Shown in pieces: positions 12,634-51,347 of a stretch of DNA of 64,000 nucleotides. The notes below the pieces were generated by a model. The model ran no database searches. It saw only the letters and a list, made by a program, of their open reading frames with translations, and was not told the origin of the DNA. The stretch's first letter is position 1, and each line of letters opens with the position of its first letter. Both the position numbers and the translations under genes were made by a program. The DNA is from Dictyostelium discoideum (lineage: Eukaryota): positions 2,880,001-2,944,000 of the forward strand of contig CM000150.2 of assembly GCA_000004695.1 (NCBI GenBank), written 5' to 3'.

Positions 12634-12668
<35 letters not shown>

Positions 12669-18938: not shown

Positions 18939-19652
18939 TTAATAAAATTCTTCTTTGATAACTAAATCATTTGACCATTGTTGAACGGCCCATTGATTCT
19001 TTTTGATACGATGTCCTCCATATGTGAAATCCATATACATTTCATATGCTGTATTATTACCATCAACGAGTAATTTTAATAATTTTGCTTCATGAATTGT
19101 TGCATTATTTACAAAAGATTCTTCAGCTTTACGATTTGCAGATTTACCAACACGATTAGTTGAATCACCTTTTTCATACATAATTACATCTTGATGATAA
19201 TATTTATCGAATACTTCTAATATTTTATTATCTTGAATACCTTTAATAATTGATTCTAAATTTGATTTGATATTAGTTGATGGTTCTGGTGTTGATGGTG
19301 TTTTAATTTCAACGAATTCTTCTTTAATAATTAAACCATTTGACCATTGTTGGAATGCCCATTGACTCTTTTTGATACGATGTTCGCCATATGTGAAATC
19401 CATAAACATTTCATATGCTGTATTATCACCATCTACGATTGTTTTTAATAATTTTGCTTCATGAATTGTTGCATTATTTACAAAAGATTCTTCAGCTTTA
19501 CGATTTGCAGATTTACCAACACGATTAGTTGAATCACCATTTTCATACATTACAATTTCATCATGATAATATTTATCGAATACTTCTAATATTTTATTGG
19601 TTTGAATCCCTTTAATAACTGCTTCTAAATTTAATTTATTATTTGATGACAT
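18939..19652 (-). CDS. SnoaL/NTF2-like tandem two-domain protein, 237 aa. Copy 1 of 3.
   Basis: Intronless ORF. The protein is an internal duplication of a ~110-aa unit (…ILEVFDKYYHDEIVMYENGDSTNRVGKSANRKAEESFVNNATIHEAKLLK…DGDNTAYEM…FTYGEHRIKKSQWAFQQWSNGLIIKEEF). The pattern fits the SnoaL_2/NTF2-like fold. Confidence 0.6.
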   Translation of the reverse strand: MSSNNKLNLEAVIKGIQTNKILEVFDKYYHDEIVMYENGDSTNRVGKSANRKAEESFVNNATIHEAKLLKTIVDGDNTAYEMFMDFTYGEHRIKKSQWAFQQWSNGLIIKEEFVEIKTPSTPEPSTNIKSNLESIIKGIQDNKILEVFDKYYHQDVIMYEKGDSTNRVGKSANRKAEESFVNNATIHEAKLLKLLVDGNNTAYEMYMDFTYGGHRIKKNQWAVQQWSNDLVIKEEFY

Positions 19653-20454: not shown

Positions 20455-21168
20455 TTAATAAAATTCTTCTTTGATAACTAAATCATTTGACCATTGTTGA
20501 ACGGCCCATTGGTTCTTTTTGACACGATGTTCACCATATGTGAAATCCATATACATTTCATATGCTGTATTATTACCATCAACGAGTAATTTTAATAATT
20601 TTGCTTCATGAATTGTTGCATTATTTACAAAAGATTCTTCAGCTTTACGATTTGCAGCTTTACCAACACGATTTGTTGAATCACCTTTTTCATACATAAT
20701 TATATCTTGATGATAATATTTATCGAATACTTCTAATATTTTATTATCTTGAATACCTTTAATAATTGATTCTAAATTTGATTTGATATTAGTTGATGGT
20801 TCTGGTGTTGATGGTGTTTTAATTTCAACGAATTCTTCTTTAATAATTAAACCATTTGACCATTGTTGGAATGCCCATTGACTCTTTTTGATACGATGTT
20901 CGCCATATGTGAAATCCATATACATTTCATATGCTGTATTATCACCATCAATGATTGTTTTTAATAATTTTGCTTCATGAATTGTTGCATTGTTTACAAA
21001 AGATTCTTCAGCTTTACGATTTGCAGATTTACCGACACGATTAGTTGAATCACCATTTTCATACATTACAATTTCATCATGATAATATTTATCGAATACT
21101 TCTAATATTTTATTGGTTTGGATACCTTTAATAACTGCTTCTAAATTTGCTCTATTATTTGATGACAT
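20455..21168 (-). CDS. SnoaL/NTF2-like tandem two-domain protein. Copy 2 of 3.
   Basis: It is about 95% identical to the copies at 18939 and 22023. The flanking intergenic DNA is also repeated. Confidence 0.6.
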   Translation of the reverse strand: MSSNNRANLEAVIKGIQTNKILEVFDKYYHDEIVMYENGDSTNRVGKSANRKAEESFVNNATIHEAKLLKTIIDGDNTAYEMYMDFTYGEHRIKKSQWAFQQWSNGLIIKEEFVEIKTPSTPEPSTNIKSNLESIIKGIQDNKILEVFDKYYHQDIIMYEKGDSTNRVGKAANRKAEESFVNNATIHEAKLLKLLVDGNNTAYEMYMDFTYGEHRVKKNQWAVQQWSNDLVIKEEFY

Positions 21169-21271: not shown

Positions 21272-22022
21272 TTTTTGATTATTGATATTATTTTAATGAA
21301 TGGTTATTATTATTTTTTTTTTTTTTTACATTTTATAGTTTTTATTGTTATCTTAAATAACTCACAATCATTCTCAACTATTCTTGAACTATCATTAAAT
21401 CATTTTGAGAAAAAAAAAAAAAAATTAAAAAACACCAGAACAAAACAAGTTTTTTTAAAAAAAATTTATGGGAAAATAAAAACATTTTTTTTTTTTTTTT
21501 TTTTTTTTACCAAAAATTTTATTTTTAGAATTTATTTTACCATTTATCTTTTATTTTGAAGGGGAAAAATAAATTTATTGGATTGAATTGGTATATTTTT
21601 TTTTAAAAATTTAAAATTTGGATAAATAAAATTTTAAAAAAAAAAATAGACATTCAAGATTAAATTCTTTTATTTGTTTTTTTTTGATTTCAAATTTATA
21701 AAAAATAAAAATAAAATGTAATAGTTATTTAATTTAAATTTTATCTTTTCTTTAAAAAAAAAAAAATCAGAAATCTATTCTGATGTGATAAAATTTTGGA
21801 GAGGTTCAGATTAATTTTATAAAATGAAATTTAAATAAAAAAAAAAAAAAATAAAATAAAATAAATAAAATAAAATAAATAAATATAAGAAATAAAATAA
21901 AAAAAATTCAACTCAGTTTTTTTTTGAAAAAATAAAAAAACAAATTAATAGATAAAAAATATGTATATTCTTTGTTTTATTTAAATTTTATTGTACATTT
22001 TTAAAAAAAATAAAAATTTTAT

Positions 22023-22736
22023 TTAATAAAATTCTTCTTTGATAACTAAATCATTTGACCATTGTTGAACGGCCCATTGATTCTTTTTGACACGATGTTC
22101 TCCATATGTGAAATCCATATACATTTCATATGCTGTATTATTACCATCAACGAGTAATTTTAATAATTTTGCTTCATGAATTGTTGCATTATTTACAAAA
22201 GATTCTTCAGCTTTACGATTTGCAGCTTTACCAACACGATTTGTTGAATCACCTTTTTCATACATAATTATATCTTGATGATAGTATTTATCGAATATTT
22301 CTAATATTTTATTATCTTGAATACCTTTAATAATTGATTCTAAATTTGATTTGATATTAGTTGATGGTTCTGGTGTTGATGGTGTTTTAATTTCAACGAA
22401 TTCTTCTTTAATAATTAAACCATTTGACCATTGTTGGAATGCCCATTGACTCTTTTTGATACGATGTTCGCCATATGTGAAATCCATAAACATTTCATAT
22501 GCTGTATTATCACCATCTACGATTGTTTTTAATAATTTTGCTTCATGAATTGTTGCATTGTTTACAAAAGATTCTTCAGCTTTACGATTTGCAGATTTAC
22601 CGACACGATTAGTTGAATCACCATTTTCGTACATTACAATTTCATCATGATAATATTTATCAAATACTTCTAATATTTTATTGGTTTGAATACCTTTAAT
22701 AACTGCTTCTAAATTTAATTTATTATTTGATGACAT
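22023..22736 (-). CDS. SnoaL/NTF2-like tandem two-domain protein. Copy 3 of 3.
   Basis: The N-terminal half matches copy 1 (FMDF). The C-terminal half matches copy 2 (IIMYEKGDSTNRVGKAANRK, GEHRVKKNQ). Confidence 0.6.
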   Translation of the reverse strand: MSSNNKLNLEAVIKGIQTNKILEVFDKYYHDEIVMYENGDSTNRVGKSANRKAEESFVNNATIHEAKLLKTIVDGDNTAYEMFMDFTYGEHRIKKSQWAFQQWSNGLIIKEEFVEIKTPSTPEPSTNIKSNLESIIKGIQDNKILEIFDKYYHQDIIMYEKGDSTNRVGKAANRKAEESFVNNATIHEAKLLKLLVDGNNTAYEMYMDFTYGEHRVKKNQWAVQQWSNDLVIKEEFY

Positions 22737-33780: not shown

Positions 33781-36700
33781 ATGATAAATAAAATTTCTCG
33801 TTTTAAAATATTATTATTGTTTATTTTTATTATTTCATTGACATGTGCTCAAGATGGTAAGTTTTTAATTATTTTCTTTTTTATAAAACATTTGCAAATA
33901 TTGACTTTTTTTTTGAAAAAAAAAAAAAAAAAAAAAAAATTTTAGAGGAATTAATATCAACACCTGAAGGGTATTACGATTTAAAACGGTTTAAAAGATT
34001 TCAACACTATAAAAATATCCAACCCAATGAAGAAGCAGGATATACAGATTTATATTATCCAGATGTTTGTAAAAATGCTATAAGGAATAGAGATGGAGCT
34101 CCAACATTTAATCAGAGAAGCTTTCCAGGTTATACAGGAGTATTCGACACTTTACTAATAACAAAGGGTATTTATCATTGTAAAATTCATAAAAATACAT
34201 CATTTTGAAAAACTTAACATTAACATTTCACCATTATCATTTCATTCAATCAAAGGTACCAATATGACATTGGATTCAACCGGTTTCCTTACTGGTCTGG
34301 GTATCTGGTCACTCTTGACTTTATGTGTTGAAGGAAATTTAACGGTACTTTATAATCCAGATGAATTTTCTTTCGTACCTGTTCATAGGTTAGTTATACT
34401 ACCAGGTGGAACTATAACATCCCATGCAAATTCATTTCTATTCTGGGATACTTACCAAGTTGATGAGAATTTTCAAGAAGAATTAAACAAAAGAGTAAAG
34501 ATTGATCCTTTTAATTTTTTCCCTGGTCTACTAGTCTTGGGAGGAAATTTAAATTTATTTGGTAATAGTCAATTGACTTATACTGCTAAACGATTGAACG
34601 ATACTACATTGGAACTATCAACTCCATTTTTAAATATGAAATTTCTATGGAATAAATATATAATTACAATCTTTACAGAATCAATACCACAAGGTGATGA
34701 TTGTCTTTTTAATATGGATTCAGATAAAAGAACTTTTTACTTAATTAAAACCAACTATGGTACTTGCAATCCATTACGGGAAACAGATAAACTCATGAAA
34801 GTAGTAATCTCATACAACCGATATGAGGATAATTACTCAAGCTATATATCTCTTTTTTCAGATTATTATGGTTTCGAACCAAATGAAGCTTCTATTTTTA
34901 TAACAGGTGATTCAAATGTCTATATTGAAAATTATCTTATTAAAAATTTAGGCAAAACAAAAAATAATGCATACAGTGATACAAAATTAATATTTTCACC
35001 AAATAATACAAGTGAAGTTATAGGGTTTATAAATGGTACCAATCAAAGATTTAGAAGTTCTTTATATATAGAGTTTTCAAATAATGTTATCATTAAAAAT
35101 TGTGTAATTATAGAATCTTCTTCAGAAACAAGATCACCGTTAGTATTTTTTGGTTCAAACGTATATTTATCAGATAATTTAATTTCAAGTAAATCTGGTT
35201 CAAGTTTAATAGCACAATATGGAACTGAAAATATTCAATCTATAAATAATTTTTATTTTCAAAAAGGTGTTTCACATCAAACTGCCTCTCAAATATTAAA
35301 TCCAATTAATATGGATTTTGGAAATGAAGGAAATGGCATTTATTCAGTATCACCAAATCTTTTATCAAGTGATGATTTTTTTATTGGTCAAAATTATTCA
35401 ATTACTTTTAACTTTATTGCCAATAGGTCAAAAATTACTGGTTTTGATCAAGATTGTTATGCACCATGTTTTAGTGATTCAATCAATTTTTCAAATAAAA
35501 TTCAGTATCCTGTAGATTTTAAAATTTTTAATCCAAAGTTTTTACCAACAAATAATACCAATAGCGATTGGTATATTTTAAATATAAATGATAATGGAAA
35601 TCAACCAGGTACCTATTATACAGTAAAAAATTTAACAACTTTAGATCCCGTACAGTTTTCATTGGATAATAGCGCTTTATCCTTTTTAGGTCTAGAAGCA
35701 AGTGAAAATTTTAAAATGAATGGTAATGCCAAAAGATTGGATATTGTTAATTCAATTATCAGTTCAAAAGCTTTAACCAACCAACAACAAATAATTTCAA
35801 AAGTTTCATCATCAGCTATTAGCTTTAAAAATTCTTATATATACAGTAAATTAGGTCAACAAATTACACCTATAGATAATCAGATTTATGGATCATTAAT
35901 TACACCATTTTATTATAATGATTCAGATATTTTAAATCAAGTTAAAATTTTATCAATTTTTCCCAATGTCCCTTTTCAAATTGTATCAGGTTCTATATTA
36001 AATGTTAGCATAAACCTTCAAATTATTTCAACGGCTGATATTTCATGCACTTTCTCTTCAGATAATTCTACTTTTAGTACAACAATTTTGGTTAACCCAT
36101 CAGACGGAAGTTGTGTTTTACCACTTGTTTTTGAAAAAGAAGGTTATTTTAATTTAAAAGTCACATTAAAGATTTCAACATCAAAGGATTATTATTATAT
36201 AGTTGATTTTCCAAAGATTACAGTATATAATGAATATTTATTTTATTCAGGATGGGTAATGATTGATTCAAGCACAGATGAATTTCTATTTGAAGGTAAA
36301 ATATTTAAATCAGGTTGCCAACAACAGGTATTAGGTAATTGTACAATATCAACAAATTCAAAGTTTATAAATGGCTTGCCAAATGTAACAGAAACAGATG
36401 AACTTAATAGATTATTTTCAAGTGGTATAACATCAATCAATCCATATGAACCTGTGACAATTACAATACCAATTGATAAAGAATCAAAAAAGAATCAAAT
36501 CCAATTATTTTTTACTCACCAACCAATTGATATAGAATATAGTCTATTATCAATATATGTAGAAAATCAACCAATATTCCTTTTAGAACAATTACAAAGT
36601 GGTTTAGGTTCAACATTTAAAAATTTAACATTTAATTATGAAAATTCAAAATCACTAGAAATAATCAACATTTCTTTCACAACAAGAGGTGATATCTATT

Positions 36701-37675
36701 TAACTTCAATGGCGGTTTATTCATCAGCCATCCCAATAATCGTTACACCAACACCAACATCAACAACATCAACACCAACACCAACATCAACAACAACATC
36801 AACACCAATTCCGACAACAACACCTACAACAACACCAAAAACATCAAAAACAACCTCCAAAAACAAATTAAAAATTGCTTTACCAATTTGCCTTTTTGCT
36901 CTTTTGGTTGCTGTTGGAGTTTTAATATGTTTTATTTTCAGAAAAAAAAAACAAAAGAAACAAAAATTAGATAATAATATGGAGGATGGAAGTGAGATGT
37001 CTTCAATTAAAATTAAAAAAGAAAATTATAATTCTTTTAACAAGTTTAAAGAGTCAACAGTATTTAAAAACGATGATTTTAAAAATTATTCCAATCCAAC
37101 CGAAACAACAATTTATAGCACTTCCGATTCACTTTTAAACTTTGTTGGCTCTGACTTTTTAAATTACTCTGACCCAAACATCCCCTTATCCTTTAGTAAA
37201 AATATTTTAGAATTTGGATTAAAAGGTTCAAAATGCGATATCAATACCTTCCTTTCCGATTCTTTACGAATAACAAATAACTCTAATATTATATTATGTA
37301 TTTGTACAGTTCTTCCAAGAAATGACTCTGGTGAAGTAAGAATTTTTTGTTTTTTTATTATTATTATAATGAATTTAATTAACTAATCAATAATGAATTT
37401 TTTTTTCAGGTAAATGTTAGTCCAGATTCTTTTGAATTAGATCCAAATCAATCAAGAGAGATAGAATTTTCTTTAAAGTTAAATTGCACAACAAGAGTAG
37501 GTTGAATTTTTATAATTGAATTATTATAATTTAGTTAATATATATACTAACTGCACATCTATTTATATCCTAGTTTTTTGAAAGATTTGCTATTGAGGCT
37601 AGACATACTCACAGTTTCAAGTCAATTCACACTCACCTTTTCATTCATGTTGAATCTAAGATTTCCTCTAAAGTA

Positions 37676-37713
<38 letters not shown>

Positions 37714-38690
37714 GATTTTAACTTAACTTTTCTTTAGTTGGATATAAAAGAGATTGAAGTTAAAGAATTGATTTCACAAAATAATTTATCAACTGTTAAT
37801 ATAGCAAATTATAGAGGTTTACAAGTTGTTTTGAGAAAGATTAAAACTCATAGCGCAAATTACACCAAAACTTACTCTCAAGCAATCAAAAAATTCTACA
37901 CAGAAATGGATATACTCTCAAAGTTAAAAAACAAAAATATTGTTTCATTTATTGGTTGCACTCACGACTCTTCTCACCTTTGGATTGTTACTGAATATGC
38001 ACCATTGGGATCTCTTAGTTCTCTTATCCATCAAAAGAAAGAAAAACTTTCATTAATTCAAAAAGTCAAGTAAGTAAAAAAAAAAAAAACAATAATATTA
38101 TAATTTAGTTCTTTTTTCTAATATTATTAATAGGTTAATGTTAGATACAGCAAAGGGGTGTGAATTTCTACACTCAAATGATATTACGAATTGTAATATA
38201 AAATCAAATAATTTATTACTCTTTTCAACAATGGAAAAAGATGATGTTTGTGTAAAAATTTCAGATTTTGGTATAAAAAGTAATTATTATTATTTTTTAA
38301 ACAATTGTTATTTTTTATACAATGATTATTTCTAACTTTTTACAAAAAAAAAAAAATAAATAAATAAAAATAGAATTTGAAGTACAAAACCAAAATGAAA
38401 AAGAAATTTTTAAAGATGAAAAAGATCAAAAGCTAATTGATGTTTATGAATTTGGAATTACATTCTATGAAACAATGCTTGAAGAAACTCCAGAAAACCT
38501 ATCTAATTTAATATTGGAAGGTGAGAGACCAACTCTTGATTTGGAAAAATTAGATGCAGACATTAGAAACATAATTGAAAGATGCTGGAACCAAAACAAA
38601 AGGTCAACATTTTCAGAGATTAGTATTTCACTAAAAGAAAAATATACAAAATTGTTGGAGAAAAATAATGAATTAATACAAGAGAATTAA
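33781..38690 (+). CDS. Receptor-like protein A: signal peptide, parallel beta-helix ectodomain, transmembrane helix, degenerate cytoplasmic pseudokinase. Eight exons.
   Basis: Exons are 33781-33856 ([25 protein letters not shown]), 33946-34167, 34256-37335, 37410-37496, 37574-37672, 37738-38069, 38134-38279 and 38374-38690. The ectodomain has PbH1-like repeats (…[18 protein letters not shown]…[21 protein letters not shown]…[12 protein letters not shown]…). A T/P-rich stalk leads to the TM helix [23 protein letters not shown]. The kinase-like region keeps subdomain II-V remnants (VVLRKIK…[20 protein letters not shown]…[13 protein letters not shown]), the DFG (ISDFG) and [11 protein letters not shown]. 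It lacks the Gly loop and the HRD catalytic loop ([12 protein letters not shown] instead). Confidence 0.7.
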
Positions 38691-38769
38691 TTTAAAAACT
38701 AACAATAAAAACAAGATAATTTATTATTATCTATGAAATTAGAAATATTTTTTTTTTTTAAATTATTGT

Positions 38770-38945
38770 TAATATTATTTGGATTACTACAAATGATATT
38801 AAAATAGAGATAGTAGATTTAGAGTTAATAGTAGGTGAAGCTGCAATTAAGTGTTAAACACTATTATTATTTGTTGTAGTTGTTGTCGATTTACTTGATT
38901 TTACAACTGGTTGGAACTCCAGATGTTGTACCGTTTGTAATGGAA
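38770..38945 (-). pseudogene. Truncated 3' fragment of a GPI-anchored surface-protein gene, paralogous to 42116-42300.
   Basis: 38760-38940 aligns almost base-for-base with 42110-42300, including the reverse-strand region that encodes the hydrophobic tail ...ISILISFVVIQIILTII* and the S/T-rich stalk. It then diverges, and no upstream ORF follows. Confidence 0.55.
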
Positions 38946-39136
38946 CAAGGAAAATAAAAAATAAGATATTAACAAATGTTTTTATTGAAGATAATTTTGG
39001 TAAAAACCAATTAAAATTTTTTTTTTCTTTTTTTCAATCTCTTAGAAATATGCCTTATTTTTTTTTTTTTTTTTGGATGGCATTCGTTTTTTTTTTTTTG
39101 GAAGACATTTTTTTTTTTTTTCTTATATTCAACAAA

Positions 39137-41830
39137 ATGAAATTAGGACAAAGGATATTTATTTTGATATGCTTAGTTATCAACTCTTTCTCTAATTGTA
39201 AGTCAACAATTAATTAAATATTATTCATTTTTTTATTAAAAAAAAAAAAAAGACTAAAAAAAAAAAAAAAAAAGGCAGTCTTGTGGTTTCACCAAATGGT
39301 TATTATAACATTTATCGAGAAAATAATTTTGGGAATATTTTAAATTTAAAGCCAACAGCAGAAAACAAATTACAAGATTCATATTATCCAGGTGTTTGTA
39401 GCAATGCAGGAAAAAATAAAGATGGTGTGACTAGTTTTTTAATATCCTCTTTCTCTATTTTTTTTTATAAATTACATCAACGTTATTGTTACAAAAGGTA
39501 TGTAAAATTTTATTTTAAATAGAATCATATTATGAAATATAAAATATTAACCAAATGCAATTAATTAACCAATTAGGTTCACATATGGTATTGGGAGATT
39601 TGGAATATTCTAAAATGAGTAATGTTAGAACTTTATTGAATATAGTTTGTGTTGAAGGCTCATTATTATTTTCAACACAAAGTGTTTTATATATGAGTGT
39701 CTTGGTAATGTTACCTGGTGGTAGTTTTGAATGTTTAGATTGCACAATTCGTTTTCGTGAACTACATCCAGCAAGCTCTCAGATCGATCCATTTGGTTTT
39801 TTCCCTGGTGTACTTGCTTTAGGTGGCTCGTTATCTCTTATTGGGAAGCAAAAAACTACATATTCTGCGACCAATATTGGTGGAAATATATTAGAGGTTC
39901 CAGATCTTTCAACATTAGATAGTTTCAATGGTTACAGTTTATCAATATTTAGTGAATCATTTCCTTTGGGAAAATCTTCAACCTTTTCCCATTATTTAAA
40001 TCGAATAAGTGTATTAGATTTGGTTATTCCGAAAACAGATAAAAATATAAGAGTCTTCTTTAATCCAAATTTTTCATTTTTCAACTCAGACAAAATCAGA
40101 TACCGCTTCAATTCATATCACAGGAAATACCAATGTATATAGAAAATTTTTACATCAATTCTTTTGGAAAGACTTCAAATGATCAATATAGCGATACAGA
40201 ATTGGTATTCTCACCTGATGATCCAAATTTAATTACAGAGTTTATAAATGGTAACAAAGATTTAGAAATTCATTATATATAGAGCATTCAAATAATGTTA
40301 CTATAAAAAATAGCGTTATACTTGAAACAAAAGAAACAAGATCACCATTAGTAATTTTTGGTTCAAATGTAAATATATCAGGTAATATAATATCAAGTAA
40401 TTCTGGTTCAAGTATTACAGGATTTGATAAAGATTGCTATTCACCATGCTATAATGATTCGATAAGAGTTTCAAGTAAAGTTCAACATTTATTAGTTCAT
40501 CAAATTACTCTGAGTTTTCTTTTTAGAATCAGCGAAACAGGTAGTAAACAAAGTTCAATTTATAAAATAAAAAATTCAAATTTAAGTTATCCAATTTCAG
40601 TATTATTAGAAAACAACGCATTTATATTAGATAATGTTTATGGTTTTGGTGATTTTAGTAATAATGGTATGATTAAAAGATTTGATATAATAAACTCAAC
40701 ATTAGATCCTTCTGCATCATCATCAATAAGTTTAAACAATTTTTCAAAAGCAATTTGTATTCAAAACTCATTTATGGATTTTAAATCATTTCAAAAACAA
40801 AACAATCAATTATTACACCTTACCTATACTATTTCGAAAATACAATGAATCTTATAAAAGTATCAAAAATGTATCCAAATGTAAACCATCAAATTTTAGC
40901 AGGTACAGTACTAAATATGGGTATTGAAATTATAATTATAGCACCATTATTTGGGAAAATGGATTGCATATTTGAAGATGAAAGTAGTGTTCAAACAATA
41001 CCATTTGATAAATCAAGTAATTCATGTGTTTTACCATACACATTTAAAAATGAAGGTTCATTTAATGTACGAGTTACATTATCACTAAATAACTCTGGAG
41101 ATAGTGTATTTCAAGTATATTTTCCAATGGTTACAGTATTTAATATATTCATTTTATTCAGGATGGGCAATGATTGATTCAAATATAGAAAAAGAAATAA
41201 TAATAGATGGTAATATATTTAAAAAAGGTTGTCAACAACAGGTATTAGGTAATTGTACAATATCAACAAATTCAAAGTTAATAACAGGTTTACCAAATGT
41301 GACAGAATCAGATGAACTTAATAGATTATTTTCAAGTGGTATAACATCTATCAACCCATATGAACATGTAACAATAACAATACCAATTGATAAAGAATCA
41401 AAAAAGAATCAAATCCAATTATTTTTCACACTAACCAATTGATATAGAATCTAGTCTATTATCAATATATGTAGAAAATCAACCAATATTCCTTTTAGAA
41501 CCATTACAAAGTAATTTAGATTCAACATTTAAAAACTTAACATTTCATTATGAAAATTTAAAATCTCAAGAAATAATCAACATATCTTTCACAACAAGAG
41601 GTGATATCTATTTAACTTCAATGGCGGTTTATTCATCAGCCATACCAATAATCGTTACACCAACACCAAAAACATCAAAAACTACCTCCAAAAACAAATT
41701 AAAAATCGCTTTACCGATTTGCCTTTTTGCTCTTTTGGTTGCTGTTGGAGTTTTAATATGTTTTATTTTAAGAAAAAAAAAAAACAAAAATTAACTAATA
41801 TTATGGAAGATGGAAGTGAGATGTCTTCAA
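39137..41830 (+). pseudogene. Receptor-like kinase pseudogene B: multiple frameshifts, in-frame stops, internal deletions and loss of the kinase exons.
   Basis: The signal exon MKLGQRIFILICLVINSFSN and the next exon (VSPNGYYNIYRENNFGNILNLKP…) match gene D. The track splits the body into broken ORFs at 39555-40142, 40845-41177 and 41104-41442, with the stop 'tatatatag' at ~40270. About 230 bp are deleted relative to D between '…SGSS' and 'ITGFDKDCYSPCYND'. The C-terminal stalk and TM (…[15 protein letters not shown]…[23 protein letters not shown]) instead match gene A. Only a short kinase 3' remnant (~41990-42050, …NELTQEN*) survives. Confidence 0.7.
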
Positions 41831-42115
41831 TTAAAATTAGTGTTTCACCTTTATCCAACTTGGGATAAAAAATGTTTTTTTTTTTTTTTTTTGATTACTA
41901 CCTTTTCAGTCCTTATTTTTTTTTGCGATCCAAAAAAAAAATTAAAAAATAAAATTCGGATTACAAATTAAAAAGGAATTTGTTTATCTTAAAGAAAAAT
42001 ATATAAAACTGTTTGGGAAAAGTAATGAATTAACACAAGAGAATTATTTTAAAACTAACAATAAAAACAAGATAATTTATTATTATCTATGAAATTAGAA
42101 ATATTTTTTTTTTTT

Positions 42116-45100
42116 TTAAATTATTGTTAATATTATTTGGATTACTACAAATGATATTAAAATAGAGATAGTGGATTTAGAGTTAATAATAGGTGAAGCT
42201 GCGCTTAAGTGTTCACCACTATTATTATTTGTTGTAGTTGTTGTCGAAGAGTCTGTTGATTTACTTGATGTTTCAACTGGTGCGCCAGTTGTTGTACCGC
42301 TTGTAATTGGAATTGAATAAGGAATTGTATTATTTGAAAAAACTTCAATACCGCACATTGGTATTGAGTACTTGAGATTATCAGATGCCCACTCAATCAT
42401 GAGTGTAACATCAGTTGAACCACTATTCCAATAGAATGGCCCAAATTTTTGATATTTTTGATAAGGTGAAGAAGGTCTTGAGTATGGATCTTGATATTTG
42501 CCATTAATCTTAATTGTGAAAATGGGTAGTGAGTTGACGATGTTGGCTCCAGTGTAATCTGCATTATAAGAGTAGATGAAAAACTTGTATTCTGCATTTG
42601 CTGGTAAAGTTAAATTTACTGAACTTTTAATTCCTAATGTAACATCATTTGATAAATAAGATGTTAACATTGATACTTCATCAGTTGCGCTTCTGATAGT
42701 TCCAGTTGTAGATTCAGTTACCGTTGATGGAATTGGTGATACTTTACTGTATTTACCAGTTACCTTACATATTCCACTAATCCAACCACATTTAGTCCAT
42801 TGGTTGCCTAAAATTGATAGTGCTTTGGAAGATGAACTAAAATCTGGAGTTAAATCTATACCAAGGTAAAACAATTGAACACCAGAATCAACTATATAGG
42901 TTTGAGCATAATATGGTCCAACAATAGATGGATCATTTGGAGCATATAATAGATTGGATGAAACAATAACTGTATAAGGTCCATTAGCTTTTGGGAAATT
43001 GGCAACCTTGGAAATAGGAGAAGCACTTGAAGGGTAATCTATTGATTGAATTACTTCGTTTACAATATATTCTATATTTTGATTTGAACCTAAAAGGTAA
43101 TCGACGTTTGGTTTAAATGATAATAAAAGTTGATTTGAAGTTATTGAATTTACCATTGGGTTAAAATTATATAATGGATATAAACCAAGGACCCCTTCAA
43201 ATATATCTAATTTTGTACCATTTACATTAGAAAGGTATAGCTGTGTGGTATATTTCTTTAAGAATAAAGATGAACTAGAATAATGAGAGAAGAGAGAGTT
43301 TTTAATTGATAAATAACCACACGAAAATGTTTCAGAAAAGAAAACATAATTTCCTTTGGCAATGGAATTAACAATTGATATCGCATTGTATTTGCCATTT
43401 AGAGTGTTTGGAGCATTAGTAAATACTTTCTCATTTGAAGATAGAGAGTTTGCAATATATGGAGAATCATAAAAGATTTCAATGTTTGCTTGGTTTCCGG
43501 TTGAACCAAGAGTTAATGATGGTTGCTGTCGAATATACCAACCAAATTTTATATTAATTTTTAGTGGGGGTTGAGTTCCAATTGGATATCTAACACGTAC
43601 TTCAGTTTCACCTGCAAAGAAATTACTCAAAAAAACAACATTGTTCCAAACATTATTAGTTTTGTAATCAGCAGTGTTATCTTGAGTTAATCCAGAGTGT
43701 ATACCTATCAGTTTATCTGATGCTAAACCCAATGTTGAATATCTACTTTGAATTGGGATTACATGAATTGCACCTCCTTTGAATTTACCTTCAAATGCAT
43801 TTCCTTCATATGTAGAGTAGGGTGATGATGTTATTATACCAACATTTATATAATCTATGTCTGGATAGGTTCTATATGATGAAACTATGCTGGTATCCGA
43901 GTATAAAGAAATGAACCCATTATAGCTAATATCAAATTGCTCTGTTCCATATAATAATGAAATACCACTGATACCTTTTCTCAATGCAAATGCATTACCA
44001 GATATTGTACCAAATGAACGTTTAGCACCAATAAAAGCTCTTGGGATTTCACTTTCTCTTAAAGTATCAATGTAGTCATAATCCATGAACATATTATTCT
44101 TAATATTTACTGCTTCTTTATTATGTAATAAAGTTATTGGATATCTATCAGGTATATTTTTTCCATATTTAAGAACATTATAGTTTGAATTTAATATATT
44201 ATCATCGAGAACATTGCTTGTTGTATGTCCAATATCATAAAAAACACTGTTTTGAATATTAACAATCGATCCAAGAGTAAAAGTCATTGAACTATTATAA
44301 AACCCTTTGATAAATACATTTTTAGACCAAGGTCTCATTACAATATAACCACTTCCACCAAATATTTCTCCTATTATTTCACTTGGGGATGCTGCGATAG
44401 CACTAGTATAATATTGATCCATTGAATAATTAATATTGTAATTTGGATCATAACTTCCACTCATTCTAAATAAAGGTAATCCTGGACTTGAATAAGAAAA
44501 AGGAGTACGGAGGAATGAACCTCCATAAGAACCAGATTTTGATGTGTTCCTTCCTGCCCATATTGACTCAGTGTTAAAACCAATAATGTTAACTGTACCG
44601 CCCAAGGAGATAAAAGGAGATGTTTGAAGAGGATCCCAAGATGGGAAATTCCAATATTCAAAAGCGGGTAAAAATATTGTGTGATTAAAACTTGAAGATG
44701 GTTTTGATTCAAATACACCAGTTGGGAATATAATTGTTTTGGAGACTGTGTAATATGTATTAGCATTTGGATCAAGAACCAATTTTCCTTTAATAATAAT
44801 TGTATAAAGCCAACTGACTCTTCCATAAAACGTAACTGTTACTCCTTCTGGAATAACCAAAACATTTTTTAACAATAATAAACTTCCTGAAGGGTTTTCG
44901 TTAATGTTTATTGGTGGTGTAAATAAATCAGTGGTAAGAAAGTTTGTGTCACTATATATTGTGCAACTTGATTTGAAAGTGTATTTTACTGTATTTGGAT
45001 TTGACTCCAAGTCTGGATAAAAATCACCTTTGTAGTTTGGGTTTTCTGGATAAAAATTAATCTTGAAATGTGGCTGCCCATTAATATTTACACGTGGAGA

Positions 45101-45271
45101 GTTCCAATCGAATGAATAAAGTTCTTGAGAGTAAGTTTCTTATTTTTTTAAATTTATTAAGATTAGTAAATCTATAGGGAAAAAAAAATAAAAAATAAAA
45201 ACAGAAAATTTTAAATAAAAGTATATACTCTGATATAATATAATGACCAGCGTAACTAATAACTTTATCAT
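42116..45271 (-). CDS. Large secreted GPI-anchored cell-surface protein, about 1000 aa, Ser/Thr/Asn-rich, 2 exons.
   Basis: Exon 1 (~45229-45271) reads ATGATAAAGTTATTAGTTACGCTGGTCATTATATTATATCAGA, giving the signal peptide MIKLLVTLVIILYQ, with a GTATAT donor. Exon 2 (42116 to ~45123) is the 964-aa track ORF extended upstream (…KLYSFDWNSPRVNINGQPHFKINFYPENPNYKGDFYPDLESNPNTVKY…). The C-terminus is an S/T-rich stalk (…TTGAPVETSSKSTDSSTTTTT…) followed by a hydrophobic tail ISILISFVVIQIILTII*. That arrangement is typical of a GPI-attachment signal. Confidence 0.65.
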
Positions 45272-45959
45272 TGTAAAGAATAAAATTAATTTCTTTAAAG
45301 CGAAATCTGAAAATCAGATATTGTAAATTGTCAAAGGAAATTAAATTAGTTATTTCTTTTCATTTAAATAATATAATTAAGGGGTATAGACTATATGTTT
45401 GAAAGGCATCTTTAAAATTAAAGGAAAAAATGAAGAATTAGTATATCATTTTAAATAACTGTTCAATATTTAAATGAAAAAAATATATTTGAATTTTGGT
45501 TTTTTAATTTTTAGTTTTTAAATTTTTTTTTATTTTAAAAACAACTTTTTTTAAAATAAAAAATTGCAATTATTAACCACCTATAGCAGAAATGAATATT
45601 TCCAGTTTTTAAACGTTTTTTTTTTTATTTTTTTTTTTTTTATTATATTTTTCTACATGATTTTGTGTATTTTTATGTTTTTTTTTTTTTATTTAAATTT
45701 TGAAAATTTAATTTTCACTTTTTTTTTTTTTTTTTTTTTTTATCTTGAAATTTTTTTATTTTGTTTTAAGATCAAAAAAAAAAAAAAAAAAAAAAAAATG
45801 TTAATTCAATGATTATAAACATCATTTCTGAAATTTAATTTATTTCTTTCCTATGAAATAATAATTAAACACCACACCCCAACCATTAATTTTTTTATTT
45901 TTATTTTTATTTTTTTTTTCAAAATCTTCGCATTTTTGATTTTTTTTTTCTGAAATCTT

Positions 45960-45994
<35 letters not shown>

Positions 45995-46041
45995 CACATA
46001 CGACATTTTTTTTTTTTTTTTCTTATATATTGCTCCACAAG

Positions 46042-49000
46042 ATGAAATTAGAACAAAGGATATTTTTTTTAATATGCCTAGTTATCAACTCTTTCTCTAA
46101 TTGTAAGTCTACAATAAATTTATTTAATATTTTTCACATTTTTACTAACCTTTTAAAATAAAAAATAAAAAAATAAAAAATAAAATAATAAAATAATAAA
46201 AAAAAGGTAGTCTTTTGGTTGCTCCAGATGGTTATTATAACATTTACCGAGAAAATAAAATTGAAAATATTTTAAATTTAAAACCAAATGGTAACAAATC
46301 ACAAGATTCATATTATCCAGATGTGTGTAGTAAAGCGGTAAAAAATAAAGAAGGTGTAAAAAGTTTTATCTTATCTTCATTCCCTCTTTCAACTAAAGAG
46401 TATGCTAACGTTATTGTAACAAAGGGTATGTAGATTTTATTTTTATTTTTTATAGTAAATTATAGTATATTTATAAATATTAACAATAAGCAATTAATTC
46501 CTAGGTTCACATATGACATTGGGTGATGGAGAATATCATCAAATATTTAATATCAATAGATTTTTGAATATAGTTTGTGTTGAGGGTTCACTTGTATTTA
46601 GTACAAAAGATGTTGTATATATGAGTGCGTTGGTAATATTACCTGGTGGTAATTTTGAATGTATAGATTGCACCATCAAATTTCGAGATCTATATCCAAC
46701 CAACTCATTAATTGACCCATTTGGTTTTTTACCTGGAATTATTACTTTGGGAGGTTCATTATCTCTTTTAGGAAAGCAAAAAACTGTGTATAGTGCAGTT
46801 TTAATAGATGAAAATATATTAGAGGTTCAGGATATTTCATCACTAGATATTTTCAATGGTTATAGTTTATTTATTTTTAGCGAATCATTTCCTTTGGGAA
46901 AGGCATCAACTTTTACTTTTAATTCAAATCAAATAAAAGTTTTGGAAATCAAAATACCAAAAACAGATAAAAGCATTAGAGTATTTTTTTATTCAAGATT
47001 TTCTACTTTCTCAACTTCAACTACTGCTTCAATTCATATCACAGGTAACTCAAATGTGCATATCGAAAACTTTTATATAGACTCTTTTGGGAGGACAACA
47101 AACGATCAATATAGCGATACAGAATTGATTTTCTCTCAAGATGATCCAAATTTAATTACTGGGTTTATAAATGGTAGCAATCAAAGATTTAGAAGTTCTT
47201 TATATATAGAGCATTCAAATAATGTTACCATAAAAAATAGTGTTATACTTGAAAATAGAGGAGAAACAAGATCACCATTAATATTCTTTGGTTCAAATGT
47301 AAATATATCAGGTAATATAATATCAAGTAAATCTGGCTCAAGTTTAATAGCGCAATATGGAACTGAAAATATTCAATCAACAAATAATTATTATTCATTA
47401 TCTTTACCACTTTTAAAATCATTAAATTCAACTCTTGATAGTATGGATTATGGAAATGAAGGAAATGGTATTTTTTCGATATCGCCAAAAATAAATTCTA
47501 TTAATGATATATTCAATGGGCAAATAATAGCAATCAATCATATAATATTATCAGATAGATCAAGTATTACAGGATTTGATAAAGATTGCTATTCACCATG
47601 CTATAATGATTCGATAAGAGTTTCAAGTAAAGTTCAACATTCAGTGGAATTTAAAATAACAGGATCAACATTTATTAGTTCATCAAATTACTCTGAAAGT
47701 AGTTTTCTTTTTAGAATCAGCGAAACAGGTAGTAAACAAAGTTCATTTTATAAAATAATAAATTCAAATTTAAGTTATCCAATTTCAGTATTGTTAGAAA
47801 ACAATGCATTTATATTAGATAATGTTTATGGTTTTGGTAATTTTACAATTAATGGTCTTATTAAAAGATTGGATATAATAAACTCAACATTAGATCCTTC
47901 TGTAACATCATCAATAAGTTTAAGCAATTTTTCAAAAGCAATTAGTATTCAAAATTCATTTATGGATTATAGATCATTTCAAAAACAAAACAATCAAATC
48001 TATGGATCAATTATTACACCTTACCTCTACTATTTCGAAAATACAATGAATCTTATAAAAGTATCAAAAATGTATCCAAATGTAAACCATCAAATTTTAG
48101 CAGGTACAGTACTAAATATGGGTATTGAAATTATAATTATAGCACCATTATTTGGGAAAATGGATTGCATATTTGAAGATGAAAGTGGTATTCAAACAAT
48201 ACCATTTAATAAATCAAGTAATTCATGTGTTTTACCATACTTATTTAAAAATGAAGGCTCATTTAATGTACGAGTTACATTATCACTAACGAAATCTTTA
48301 GATAATATTATATTTCAAGTATATTTTCCAATGGTTACAGTATTTAATATATATTCATTTTATTCAGGATGGGCAATGATTGATTCAAATATAGAAAAAG
48401 AAATAATAATAGATGGTAATATATTTAAAAAAGGTTGTCAACAACAGGTATTAGGTAATTGTACAATATCAACAAATTCAAAGTTAATAACAGGTTTACC
48501 AAGTGTAACAGAATCAGACAAACTTAATAGACTATTTTCAAGTGGTATAACATCTATCAACCCATATGAACCTGTAACAATAACAATACCAATTGATAAA
48601 GAATCAAAAAAGAATCAAATCCAATTATTTTTCACTCACCAACCAATTGATATAGAAACCAGTCTATTATCAATATATGTAGAGAATCAACCAATATTCC
48701 TTTTAGAACCATTACAAAGTAATTTAGATTCAACATTTAAAAATTTAACATTTCATTATGAAAATTCAAAATCATTAGAAAAAATCAAAATTACATTTAT
48801 AACAAGAGGCGATATTTATTTAACATCTACAGCGATTTATTCATCAACTAACCAACCTATATATAACGAAGTTATTGGTATAAATGAACAATTAAATATA
48901 TTAGCAATTGTACTACCAATAACGATTTCATTGTTTGCAGCGGCATCAATATTGGCTGGTTATTTAGTAATTAAAAAATATAAAAAACCAAACATGTATT

Positions 49001-50199
49001 ATAATAGAAATACCAATGGAAATATCGGAATGAAGGTTTTCTCAACAAAATTTAAAAGAAGACCCAAAAAGGTAATACCACTTTCAATCCCATTAAGTAC
49101 AAATAGAATTACAAAGAAATCATTACAATCTTTAGATTCAATGGCTGAAAACCCTGTGATATTACTTTCCATTCCAGAATTGGAGAAAGCCAATGAACCA
49201 GAATTTAATCCTGAAAAAACTTTCTTACAAGAATCAGAATTATTAGATTTACCAACACCAAAGGTAGAACCAGAAGAGCCAAGAATTAATATTGTTCCCC
49301 TCCCTCGTTTTCCAACCGTATATAAAAAAGAAGATAACGATAAATTATTAAAAGAATTGAATATAACTGGTCCTATCACCTCTGAAAATATTGAATCATT
49401 CTTTGAAGTTGATGTTGGTTTGCCATCTTTAATAATAAAGAATGAATCTGAAATCATTCTACAAGAAATTGATTATATTGAAACTGGTGAAATTCAAGAA
49501 ATGGAAGGTAGCTTTTTGGAAGATAAATCAACTGATACAACCGTTATAGTAACAAAAAGTGATGGTTTACCTAAATTTTTTCAAACCAAAGTCTTTTCCA
49601 AACGATTTAATGATATATCCAAATTTGATAATGATTTCTTTGATCTAAAGGAATACATAGTTGAACATCAAGAAGAATCTTTTGAAATACCTTTTATGAC
49701 CTCGGAAGATGAAGTAGATGAAACCAAAATTAATATAATAGACTTTTTACTCAGTCCCAAATCTAATAAAGTTGCACTAAATATGTATTTAAAATCATTT
49801 CAAAATAGAAACCATAAACTTTGTTATGGAAAGTATGGTTCAAATAAAAATTCTATTCTTGTTATTGAAGGCACATCTTATTATTATGATTGTACAGATG
49901 TTAGGTTACCAATATCAACACCTCGTAGTAATCTTAATTTTGGAATAACAGATGGTAATAAATGTATAGTTGATAGAAAATATAGAGAAAGGTTACAATA
50001 TATAAATGTTTATAGTGAACCATTTAGAATTTATACTCTTTTTCCAGATAGTAATGATAATGTAACAATTACAACTTCAGAATGTTGTAAAGAAATAGAC
50101 CCATTTGGTTCATTAGATGTAGATATATTTGTAACTTTAAAAACAACAACCAAAGTAAGTATTTTAAAAAAAAAAAAAAAAAAAAAAGAATTATAAACT

Positions 50200-50230
<31 letters not shown>

Positions 50231-51347
50231 CATAAAAAAAACATAATAATAGTTTAATGAAAAAGTTACAATTCGTTATGAAACTGATGATAAAGAATTA
50301 GCATTTTCAACATTTGTTTATTTAAATTTAGAGAGTCAAGTATCATCAAAAATTGATTTTGATGAAATAGTTCTCGAAAAATATTTATCTGAAGGTTCAT
50401 TTGGAGTTGTATATAGTGCTATTTGGAGATCATCATCAGTTGCGGTCAAATTATTCAAACATCATTATTCTAAAGATGAAATTGATAAAGAAACATCAAT
50501 TTTATCAAAAATAAAACATCCAAATATAGTTTCATTCATTGGAAGTTTAAATTTTTTAAATACATATGGTATTGTAATTGATTATCATCCAAGAGGTTCT
50601 TTAAATTATTATACTCGTAATCAAAATATTAAACTATCAATGGTACAAAATATTAGGTATGTAATAATTAAAATATTATTATTTATTATTATTATATTAT
50701 TTATTAATTTTTTTTTTTTTTTTAGGATTTCATTGGATATTTCAAGAGCTTGTTCATTTCTTCATAAAAATGGTATTATTCATCGAGATTTAAAACCAGA
50801 TAATGTTTTAATTGTTTCATTTGATCCAGATTCTTCAATTTGCGCAAAGATATCAGATTTTGGTACTTGCAGAGGTATGTTTTTTTTTTTTTTTTTTTTT
50901 GATATATTCAAATTTTTTTTTTTTTTTTTGAATTCAACTAACTATTTTTGTTTTAAATTAAAAAAAGAAATTAATGGAAAGCATGAATTAAACTCAAAAG
51001 CTGGAACAACACGTTATATGAGTCCAGAAATTTTAGAAGGTCTTCCATATACATATTCTACAGATGTTTATTCTTTTGCAATCCTTTTCTTTGAATTACT
51101 TTCCGGAAGAGTACCATTTAGAGAAATTCCAAAAAGAGAAATTCCAAGATTTGTACGTTTAGGAACAAGACCTCGTTTAGATCAAGATGTATTTGCCGAT
51201 AATGATATATCATTAATTTTATTAGCTTGTTGGAATCCAAATCCTCGTGGTAGACCAACATTTGATACTTTAATAGATTTATTAGAAAAATTATTAAAAA
51301 AATATAAAGAAAGAGCAAAAAGAAATAAAAAAAATCAAAATCAATAA
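46042..51347 (+). CDS. Receptor-like kinase D: signal peptide, beta-helix ectodomain, transmembrane helix, intact cytoplasmic Ser/Thr (TKL-like) kinase. Six exons.
   Basis: Exons are 46042-46102 (MKLEQRIFFLICLVINSFSN), 46207-46425, 46505-50154, 50253-50656, 50726-50874 and 50968-51347. The TM helix is ILAIVLPITISLFAAASILAGYLVI. The kinase is intact: GSFGVVYSA (Gly loop), VAVKLF (beta-3 Lys), HRDLKPDN, DFG, GTTRYMSPE and DVYSFAILFFELL. The ectodomain is ~60-70% identical to gene A. Confidence 0.75.

Follow-up and report, generated by a model that had tools for sequence, protein, structure and literature searches.

Within a 64,000-nucleotide window of the Dictyostelium discoideum AX4 genome (GCA_000004695.1, contig CM000150.2, positions 2,880,001 to 2,944,000 of the forward strand; this whole stretch is the window, and coordinates given alone refer to it), a pseudogene at 39137–42050, here called B, lies between two paralogous genes of the GDT family, gdt6 (gene A) upstream and gdt4 (gene D) downstream. 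B is a mosaic, resembling gdt4 over its 5' part and gdt6 over its 3' part, and it has lost the kinase. We consider it likely, at roughly 80%, that B is a gdt-family chimera produced by non-allelic recombination between the paralogues that flank it, through an anti-Lepore exchange, early deletions and later conversion. GDT proteins are Dictyostelium-specific receptor-like TKL kinases with a signal peptide, a conserved ectodomain, one transmembrane (TM) helix and a C-terminal kinase (Goldberg et al., 2006; PMC1420674), and both gdt4 and gdt6 are members of this family.

Mosaic structure of B

The large exon of gene D (46513–50193) encodes a translation 100% identical to that of D. discoideum AX4 DDB_G0270550 (XP_646034.2, chromosome 1), for which the UniProt name is 'probable serine/threonine-protein kinase gdt4'. 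Gene A is annotated as 'probable inactive serine/threonine-protein kinase gdt6'. The features of the cluster are as follows.

33782–38690, + strand: gdt6 (gene A, DDB_G0270544), parent of the 3' part of B; assigned from exon 1 and the translation, with the name taken from a cluster look-up
36245–36660, + strand: gdt6 copy of a ~400-bp membrane-proximal block kept similar among gdt6, B and gdt4
38631–38945, + strand: gdt6 terminus with the adjoining 3' flank, followed by C', a stub of the final ~260 bp of gene C; paralogous to 41988–42312
39021–39136, + strand: proximal upstream region of B, gdt4-like (compare 45933–46042); a weak match, T-rich and of low complexity, at ~73% identity
39137–40216, + strand: B segment I, running from the signal exon through exon 2 and two introns into exon 3, gdt4-like and anciently diverged
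40217–41546, + strand: B segment II, near-identical to gdt4, holding the 40407|40408 deletion junction and further frameshifting deletions
41546–41567, + strand: D-to-A switch interval, from gdt4-like to gdt6-like, by maximum chi-square
41567–41839, + strand: B segment III, running from the stalk through the transmembrane helix into the cytoplasmic tail, gdt6-like
41840–41987, + strand: filler, 148 bp in place of ~1.6 kb of gdt6, giving a new C-terminus, ISVSPLSNLG, with a stop codon at 41866–41868
41988–42050, + strand: remnant of the last gdt6 kinase exon (...KEKYIKLFGKSNELTQEN), which lost its stop codon to a 1-bp deletion
42051–45240, − strand: gene C, a convergent gene of ~1017 aa, intact here (open reading frame 42116–45010), whose 3' end (to 42312) is duplicated as C'
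46043–51347, + strand: gdt4 (gene D, DDB_G0270550), parent of the 5' part of B; assigned by the translation match to XP_646034.2
47338–47559, + strand: gdt4 stretch matching the 222 bp lost from AX4 B, bounded by a TCAAGT direct repeat
48362–48775, + strand: gdt4 copy of the ~400-bp block, with gdt4-specific sequence starting just downstream

Pairwise identities change abruptly along B. Compared with gdt4, B is 77.4% identical over 39137–40216, 92.1% over 40217–40407, 96.2% over 40408–41546 and 71.4% over 41567–41650, and beyond 41650 gdt4 can no longer be aligned. Compared with gdt6, identity is 59.4% over 39137–41155, 90.7% over 41156–41546 and 96.0% over the aligned columns of 41567–41839 (91.6% by BLAST); the Thr/Pro stalk of B is shorter than that of gdt6 by 88 gap columns. 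Further downstream, B 41988–42312 matches gdt6 38631–38945 at 93.5% over aligned columns, or 88% when gaps are counted, so the gdt6-like identity runs past the stop codon into non-coding DNA and then into the last ~260 bp of C. A three-way MAFFT alignment was unreliable 3' of ~41850, where pairwise alignments and BLAST anchors were used instead.

A maximum chi-square test on the 58 sites where B matches just one parent placed the switch from D to A between sites 41546 and 41567 (chi-square 30.3, permutation p <= 1e-4), with 33 D-like and 7 A-like sites to its left and 1 D-like and 17 A-like sites to its right. The switch has the identical position in the B copies of AX4 and of three related genomes, ACTFIW, ACTFIR and ACTFIY. 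Downstream of this position, D. citrinum and D. firmibasis retain both the states particular to gdt4 and those particular to gdt6. A further change point, in the identity of B to gdt4, falls after ~40216, where identity rises from 77% to 96% (log-likelihood ratio 93). This shift does not mark the junction of the 222-bp deletion in B, as the change point lies ~190 bp upstream of it and the deletion is specific to AX4, judging from the intact orthologue described below. The mosaic and its breakpoint are thus real. The original prediction, made from the AX4 sequence alone, had described B as D-like at the 5' end and A-like at the 3' end; an alignment of B with both parents maps the breakpoint it supposed, and uniform equidistance of B from A and D is rejected.

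B starts with an ATG at 39137. Its first exon encodes MKLGQRIFILICLVINSFSN, the counterpart in gdt4 being MKLEQRIFFLICLVINSFSN, and the signal exon and both intron positions agree with gdt4, with none resembling gdt6. The signal exon and intron positions common to B and gdt4 imply that B is an unprocessed duplicate; a processed pseudogene is ruled out by the retention of both gdt4 introns in place and by the tandem location beside the parents. Likeness to gdt4 had been expected over the first ~300 codons. It does hold there, although it extends for ~2.4 kb (~800 codons), and the first ~1.1 kb is the least D-like part of it.

The 3' part was correctly predicted to follow gene A, both in the stalk and TM and in the kinase-3' remnant (...NELTQEN), at the 96.0% and 93.5% identities given above. 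Judged by eye and by homology, the TM region at 41650–41770 is a single helix after a Thr/Pro-rich stalk, 96% identical to gdt6. The kinase is gone, as had been claimed: gdt6 37016–38630 (juxtamembrane region and kinase, ~1.6 kb) has no counterpart in B. When the filler at 41840–41987 was searched against gdt6 of AX4 and D. citrinum and against gdt4, poly-T runs alone matched. By the usual definition of the family, B has the signal peptide and the gdt ectodomain, the latter collinear with that of both gdt4 and gdt6 (Pfam has no model of it), and it lacks the kinase; its intact orthologues P0006 and P0030 likewise carry no kinase Pfam domain.

Intact orthologues, synteny and conversion

Orthologues of B were found by protein search with gdt4 in other Dictyostelium assemblies. 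These come from a 2025 study of tgr allorecognition in whose text 'gdt' does not appear (PMC12745789), and they are Nanopore+Illumina assemblies, while AX4 is Sanger-based. Within the D. discoideum clade, the comparison genomes stand for diverged lineages or cryptic species, and genes flanking the cluster in them are ~91%, 88% and 85% identical to those of AX4. Because flanking-gene divergence is similar, an unusually polymorphic cluster between isolates is ruled out.

The local order in AX4 is gdt6 – C' – B – C – gdt4, and this A-C'-B-C-D arrangement is found in four genomes (AX4, ACTFIW, ACTFIR and ACTFIY). C' stands next to gdt6 in all five genomes of the D. discoideum complex, that is, in these four and in ACTFIZ. 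Neither B nor C' was found in D. firmibasis (L003) or D. citrinum (L004), which have the order gdt6 – C – gdt4 with a single C 3' end each. In ACTFIZ, A-C' is followed directly by one kinase-bearing gene, and C is missing. This gene (D. cf. discoideum, GCA_054859235.1, L005 10001–15274, P0004) has an intact model of 1602 aa. Over its first ~1.1 kb, corresponding to segment I, it is 86–93% identical to B and 75–79% to gdt4; after a switch it is 92–96% identical to gdt4 and ~54% to B. It is a Lepore-type deletion product of an exchange between B and gdt4. Turnover in the cluster, which the original prediction had suggested, is borne out by this fusion, with C deleted, and by the decay of B independently in two lineages.

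At the position of B in ACTFIW, P0006 (ACTFIW_009942, 957 aa) is encoded by an uninterrupted open reading frame (ORF); splicing the DNA at the intron positions of gdt4 gives back exactly this protein. Its layout matches that of AX4 B: the N-terminus resembles gdt4, the stalk and TM resemble gdt6, and a kinase is lacking. The protein is 86% identical to gdt4 over 63% of its length. P0030 (ACTFIR_004705, 960 aa) is its cluster-mate, and the B copies of ACTFIR and ACTFIW differ by in-frame indels alone. In ACTFIY, P0007 (ACTFIY_000761) is a 733-aa gene model that skips the lesions of B there: −2, −476 (near L002 ~11793) and −2, none in common with AX4.

AX4 B differs from the intact ACTFIW orthologue by 11 frame-disrupting indels and a 222-bp deletion, so that its status as a pseudogene in AX4 stands. 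The lesions are +1 at 39458, −2 at 40076, −2 at 40138 and −4 at 40255 in the 5' part; −222 at 40408, −31 at 40482, −5 at 40513 and −13 at 40805 in the middle; and −2 at 41143, −2 at 41429, −7 at 41782 and +2 at 41869 in the 3' part. A deletion of ~230 bp had been proposed; it is real, and its exact size is 222 bp, at 40407|40408. The TCAAGT direct repeats that bound the corresponding stretch in gdt4 are typical of a slippage-type event.

The kinase deletion has the same left junction in all four B copies, which also end in the same new C-terminus. As the switch, the deletion junction and the C-terminus are common to all of them, the chimera and the loss of the kinase predate the split of these lineages. 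Between intact B copies dN/dS is 0.14–0.33, compared with 0.16–0.20 for gdt4, and it is 0.39–0.64 in comparisons that involve the two decayed copies (AX4 and ACTFIY). B was thus a gene without a kinase but under constraint through most of its existence, and it was lost on at least two separate occasions; in the AX4 lineage the frameshifts and the 222-bp deletion came late. The original prediction had placed frameshifts and deletion after the exchange. They are indeed later than the chimera, but the chimera and the kinase loss are ancient and common to several lineages, and in between B remained an intact ORF.

The switch in B is located at the right (3') edge of the ~400-bp block. Within this block gdt6 and gdt4 are 90% identical in AX4 and 90–100% identical across genomes, compared with ~40–75% over most of the ectodomain (~55% upstream of the block), and the right edge of the block is the same in five genomes. 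In D. citrinum the two genes have K = 0.003 over 330 ungapped columns of the block; they are 100% identical over ~300 bp (five consecutive 60-column windows) and ~50% identical on either side. This stretch (L004 ~12590–12930 in gdt6, 21668–22000 in gdt4) points to a very recent conversion at a hotspot that holds the junction of B. The D. firmibasis gdt6 and gdt4 also pair in the block, with 100% bootstrap support. Since genes in the block group by species and its right edge is fixed, the block is a long-standing conversion tract, older than B. Because A, B and D are homogenised there, the original exchange can be placed solely within ~41150–41567.

A second, shorter stretch of high similarity (B 40250–40450, gdt6 35035–35240, gdt4 47173–47380; motif ETRSPL.FFGSNV) lies inside the 40–75% region and is 84–93% identical between gdt6 and gdt4 in all five genomes. 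Strong constraint on a motif would explain it, as would a second conversion tract.

Segments I and II of B have different histories. In segment I, B and gdt4 have diverged by a Kimura two-parameter distance (K2P) of 0.27 and a synonymous divergence (dS) of 0.53–0.57, compared with a K2P of 0.29 and dS of 0.50–0.55 between the gdt4 genes of D. discoideum and D. citrinum. The segment I tree groups by locus, with the B copies in one clade and the gdt4 genes of AX4 and ACTFIY in another. There is one exception: gdt4 of ACTFIW and ACTFIR carries a B-type segment I, with K of 0.076 to its own B and 0.27 to AX4 gdt4. These B-type gdt4 starts (~1.1 kb) lie at L001 17089–18300 in ACTFIW and L006 17100–18300 in ACTFIR, and from them we infer that sequence has also moved from B into a functional kinase gene.

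The segment II tree (40408–41546), by comparison, groups by genome. B and gdt4 of ACTFIY pair with 100% bootstrap, and those of ACTFIW/ACTFIR with 92%; the AX4 pairing has just 44%. Within genomes, dS between B and gdt4 is 0.057–0.079 (0.058 in AX4), versus 0.114–0.117 between the gdt4 genes of different genomes. This pattern is the signature of B and gdt4 evolving in concert by repeated interlocus gene conversion in segment II. Concerted evolution, another element of the original prediction, thus finds support in the by-genome clades (92–100%) and the lower within-genome dS.

Origin of B

We favor the following course of events. The ancestral order would have been gdt6 – C – gdt4, with C convergent, as it survives in D. 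citrinum and D. firmibasis. On one chromatid gdt4 would have paired with gdt6 on the other via the ~400-bp block, and a misaligned exchange in the block or at its 3' edge would have fused the 5'-terminal 2.4 kb of gdt4, with its promoter-proximal DNA, the signal exon, the two introns and the larger part of the ectodomain, to the 3' part of gdt6, which would have contributed stalk, TM, tail, kinase, 3' flank and the adjoining C. The product, gdt6 – C – (gdt4 5'/gdt6 3') – C – gdt4, would be the 'anti-Lepore' duplication product of unequal crossing-over. An early deletion of ~3.6 kb would then have taken out the bulk of the first C copy along with the larger part of the DNA between C and gdt4, leaving the ~260 bp of C', and another, of ~1.6 kb, the gdt6-type kinase of B, which would already have been catalytically dead. 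Both deletions would precede the split of the sampled D. discoideum-complex lineages and would have resulted in a kinase-less type-I membrane protein of ~957 aa. B would then have been kept under purifying selection while still exchanging with gdt4 by conversion, and possibly also with gdt6, until in the AX4 lineage it decayed by the 11 frame-disrupting indels and the slippage-type deletion. Continued conversion with gdt4 would also be the reason why 40217–41546 is 92–96% gdt4-like while 39137–40216 keeps its old divergence. Of all this, the mosaic with its breakpoint, the junctions common to the B copies, the gene orders, the grouping by genome and the intact orthologues are direct observations; the precise mechanism, the direction of each conversion and any role of the intact form are proposed.

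As expected for an anti-Lepore product, B has its 5' part from the downstream parent and its 3' part from the upstream parent, with one supported switch in a stretch of high identity, and relatives have the pre-exchange order. The proposal of unequal crossing-over or gene conversion between paralogues is therefore upheld by the breakpoint, by the position of B between its parents, by the duplicated gdt6 3' flank and by the A-C-D order in relatives. However, the duplicated intervening DNA comprises the gdt6 3' flank and the last ~260 bp of C alone. Nothing else of the predicted C copy remains, which calls for a subsequent deletion or for some other mechanism.

Several observations weigh against this course of events. 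Had there been just one exchange, every part of B should be equally old, but its segments differ in age: dS to gdt4 is 0.53–0.57 in segment I versus ~0.06 in segment II, and in segment III K between A and B is ~0.05 versus 0.12–0.16 between the gdt6 genes of AX4 and D. citrinum. Later conversion is invoked for two of the three segments, with direct support in segment II and weak support in segment III. No trace was found of the 5' part of the first C copy, nor of C-D intergenic DNA beyond ~116 bp upstream of B, so a crossover followed by a 3.6-kb deletion is indistinguishable from a one-step rearrangement. Synteny favors an origin of B after the split from D. citrinum, yet the depth of segment I about equals that split. 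In the segment I tree, the B-type gdt4 of ACTFIW/ACTFIR branches outside the clade of AX4, ACTFIW and ACTFIY B copies with 96% bootstrap, which suggests an older conversion with lineage sorting, or gene flow. Finally, polishing of paralogous regions could inflate within-genome similarity in the comparison assemblies; the Sanger-based AX4 sequence gives the same within-genome pattern.

The missing C copy leads to a one-step alternative, in which replication template switching, resembling fork stalling and template switching or microhomology-mediated break-induced replication (FoSTeS/MMBIR), takes the place of a reciprocal crossover and a later deletion. Replication would have passed through gdt6 and reached the 3' end of C, then moved to a point ~100 bp upstream of gdt4, from which 2.4 kb would have been copied before a return to gdt6 via the block. 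This would yield the A-C'-B-C-D order directly, without a separate 3.6-kb deletion, and would fit the same truncated C' in all five B-bearing lineages, with one junction in homology and the other in non-homologous AT-rich DNA. No diagnostic microhomology can be read at the junction between C' and the B upstream region, though, where ~75 bp of AT-rich sequence (38946–39020) could not be assigned an origin in comparisons with the C gene body, the C-D intergenic region or the gdt6 upstream region, and ACTFIZ offers an independent instance of unequal crossover between the same genes. We regard template switching as possible but on balance unlikely. The depth of segment I leads to a different alternative, somewhat less probable again, in which B is older than the D. 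citrinum/D. firmibasis split and was lost there, which would make it no novelty of the D. discoideum complex. With a dS between B and gdt4 as large as that between D. discoideum and D. citrinum gdt4, and a segment I tree that is a four-way star, such an age is conceivable, and recombination between the direct repeats formed by the 3' ends of gdt6 and B would restore A-C-D free of scars. It would require two independent losses, or one loss and a particular species tree, while segments II and III and the C'/C pair are far younger than the species split and synteny parsimony favors a gain.

Conversion might also have done more than we suppose: B could have begun as a tandem gdt6 duplicate ending inside C, its promoter and 5' 2.4 kb being overwritten later by one or more gdt4 conversion tracts. 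C' directly upstream of B is what a duplication endpoint in C would leave, conversion between B and gdt4 is demonstrably frequent, and the two layers of the D-like part could mean two conversions of different age. We nevertheless think this very unlikely, as conversion needs homology and gdt6 and gdt4 have only ~40–65% identity across the bulk of the 2 kb to be overwritten, their signal exons show no relationship and neither does the DNA before them, the region upstream of B holds no gdt6-upstream sequence, and the end of a tract within ~100 bp of the duplication junction would be a coincidence. As to the absence of any recombination, with B having the ancestral architecture and gdt4 gaining a new 3' end, or with chance or an assembly artefact at work, nothing speaks for it except that gdt family members have an ectodomain in common. 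Inside a single gene the identity between A and B climbs from 59% to 96%, and the high level extends into the 3' flank, which is non-coding; the breakpoint has p <= 1e-4, gdt4 of D. citrinum and D. firmibasis already has the gdt4-type 3' end, and the same structure recurs in four independent assemblies; we give this explanation next to no credence.

A locus that in the reference strain appears to be a relic is, in wild relatives, a gdt gene that lacks the kinase but is intact and under constraint, and work on gdt4 and gdt6 in the growth-to-differentiation transition that uses AX4/AX2 alone may miss a family member. Orthology calls and phylogenies blind to the mosaic would be misled by the ~400-bp gdt6/gdt4 conversion hotspot, which is present across species. 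A more speculative suggestion, and one we hold to be quite doubtful, is that B in wild D. discoideum-complex lineages is a maintained kinase-less receptor, possibly a decoy or co-receptor for gdt4, and also a donor cassette that switches gdt4 heads. B would then combine a ligand-binding ectodomain of the gdt4 type with a stalk and TM of the gdt6 type. Its N-terminal 350 codons (dS ~0.55 from gdt4) would twice have been transferred to the gdt4 that bears the kinase, in ACTFIW/ACTFIR through conversion and in ACTFIZ through fusion, and the cluster would switch gdt4 between two deeply divergent ectodomain heads.

Neighboring genes and comparison with known systems

The window is AT-rich, with GC of ~14–32% per 1-kb window. 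A Pfam scan of the gene C ORF returned no domain; the C-terminus of the protein is Ser/Thr-rich, orthologous models in related genomes have 1003–1020 aa, and the position of C between gdt6/B and gdt4 is kept in all genomes examined except ACTFIZ. For the exon-3 ORFs of A and D, no meaningful Pfam match to an ectodomain family was found, only sub-threshold ones on the stalk/TM region of A. In our translation of gdt6 the catalytic loop departs from HRDLKPxN, and Table S2 of the kinome paper likewise lists it as deviating (PMC1420674). The catalytic motifs of the gdt6 kinase domain (37740–38690) are degenerate, yet the ORF is kept in ACTFIY, and the kinase region is present in the gene models of every species examined; to judge by its sequence, gdt6 looks like a maintained pseudokinase. 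Upstream of gdt6, ACTFIR has a reverse-transcriptase (RVT_1) gene (L006 155–2803) where other lineages have APH and Arf-like genes, which may reflect a lineage-specific retroelement insertion or a rearrangement beside the cluster. Elsewhere in the window, three minus-strand ORFs in tandem (18939–19652, 20455–21168 and 22023–22736) each encode 237 aa with two SnoaL-like domains (Pfam SnoaL_5 and SnoaL_2). The single pair compared has 97% protein identity, and the ORFs form another tandem array, young or homogenised.

A search of the accessible literature for DDB_G0270544, DDB_G0270546, DDB_G0270548 and DDB_G0270550 returned no mention, and the locus of B is likewise unreported there (dictyBase annotation was not covered). 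The gdt2 paper of Chibalina et al. from 2004 is said to report one of two pseudogenes then known. The GDT family as described comprises gdt1, gdt2, gdt4, gdt6, gdt8 and gdt9, the kinase-less gdt5 and a pseudogene, Gdt3_ps (Goldberg et al., 2006; PMC1420674). B resembles these genes in its signal peptide, large gdt ectodomain and single TM, and in sitting between gdt6 and gdt4; it differs from them in lacking the kinase domain and, in AX4, also an open reading frame. A kinase-less member is already known, as gdt5 (1176 aa) also lacks a kinase Pfam match. B is not Gdt3_ps, which starts MGLLLKV and keeps an HRDLKPEN kinase, and an identification with 'gdt7' was dropped, as none of the paper and supplement texts searched mentions gdt7. 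B itself was not found in the text or supplements of the kinome paper (PMC1420674), as would be expected of a locus that offers no kinase sequence to detect.

Nothing here is mechanistically new: the events amount to textbook unequal recombination and gene conversion in a small cluster. The locus is nonetheless a clean mapped case, in a social amoeba, of Lepore/anti-Lepore-type exchange with bounded interlocus conversion. The names come from the delta/beta-globin fusions generated by unequal crossing-over, and chimeric beta/delta globins occur in mammals (PMC4041002). B is like anti-Lepore in that it combines the 5' part of the downstream parent with the 3' part of the upstream parent and stands between both intact parents, with a part of the intervening DNA duplicated, and the ACTFIZ gene is like Lepore in that it combines the 5' part of B with the 3' part of gdt4, with the intervening C deleted. 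As in the globins, the paralogues are highly identical where the exchange lies, and gene conversion goes with it. Unlike the globins, gdt4 and gdt6 are only ~55% identical outside a short homogenised block, an unrelated convergent gene, C, stands between gdt6 and gdt4 with just a stub of its duplicate left, and B lost its whole kinase domain after the exchange; the reciprocal crossover is here inferred and not observed. A recent model of interlocus gene conversion with mosaic divergence in tandem paralogues (bioRxiv 10.1101/2025.10.29.685298) is also close to what we find. The gdt cluster has the same patchy divergence, with one segment homogenised and grouping by genome while the adjacent one escapes and groups by locus, though three loci take part rather than two, one of which, B, is a pseudogene in some lineages and intact in others.

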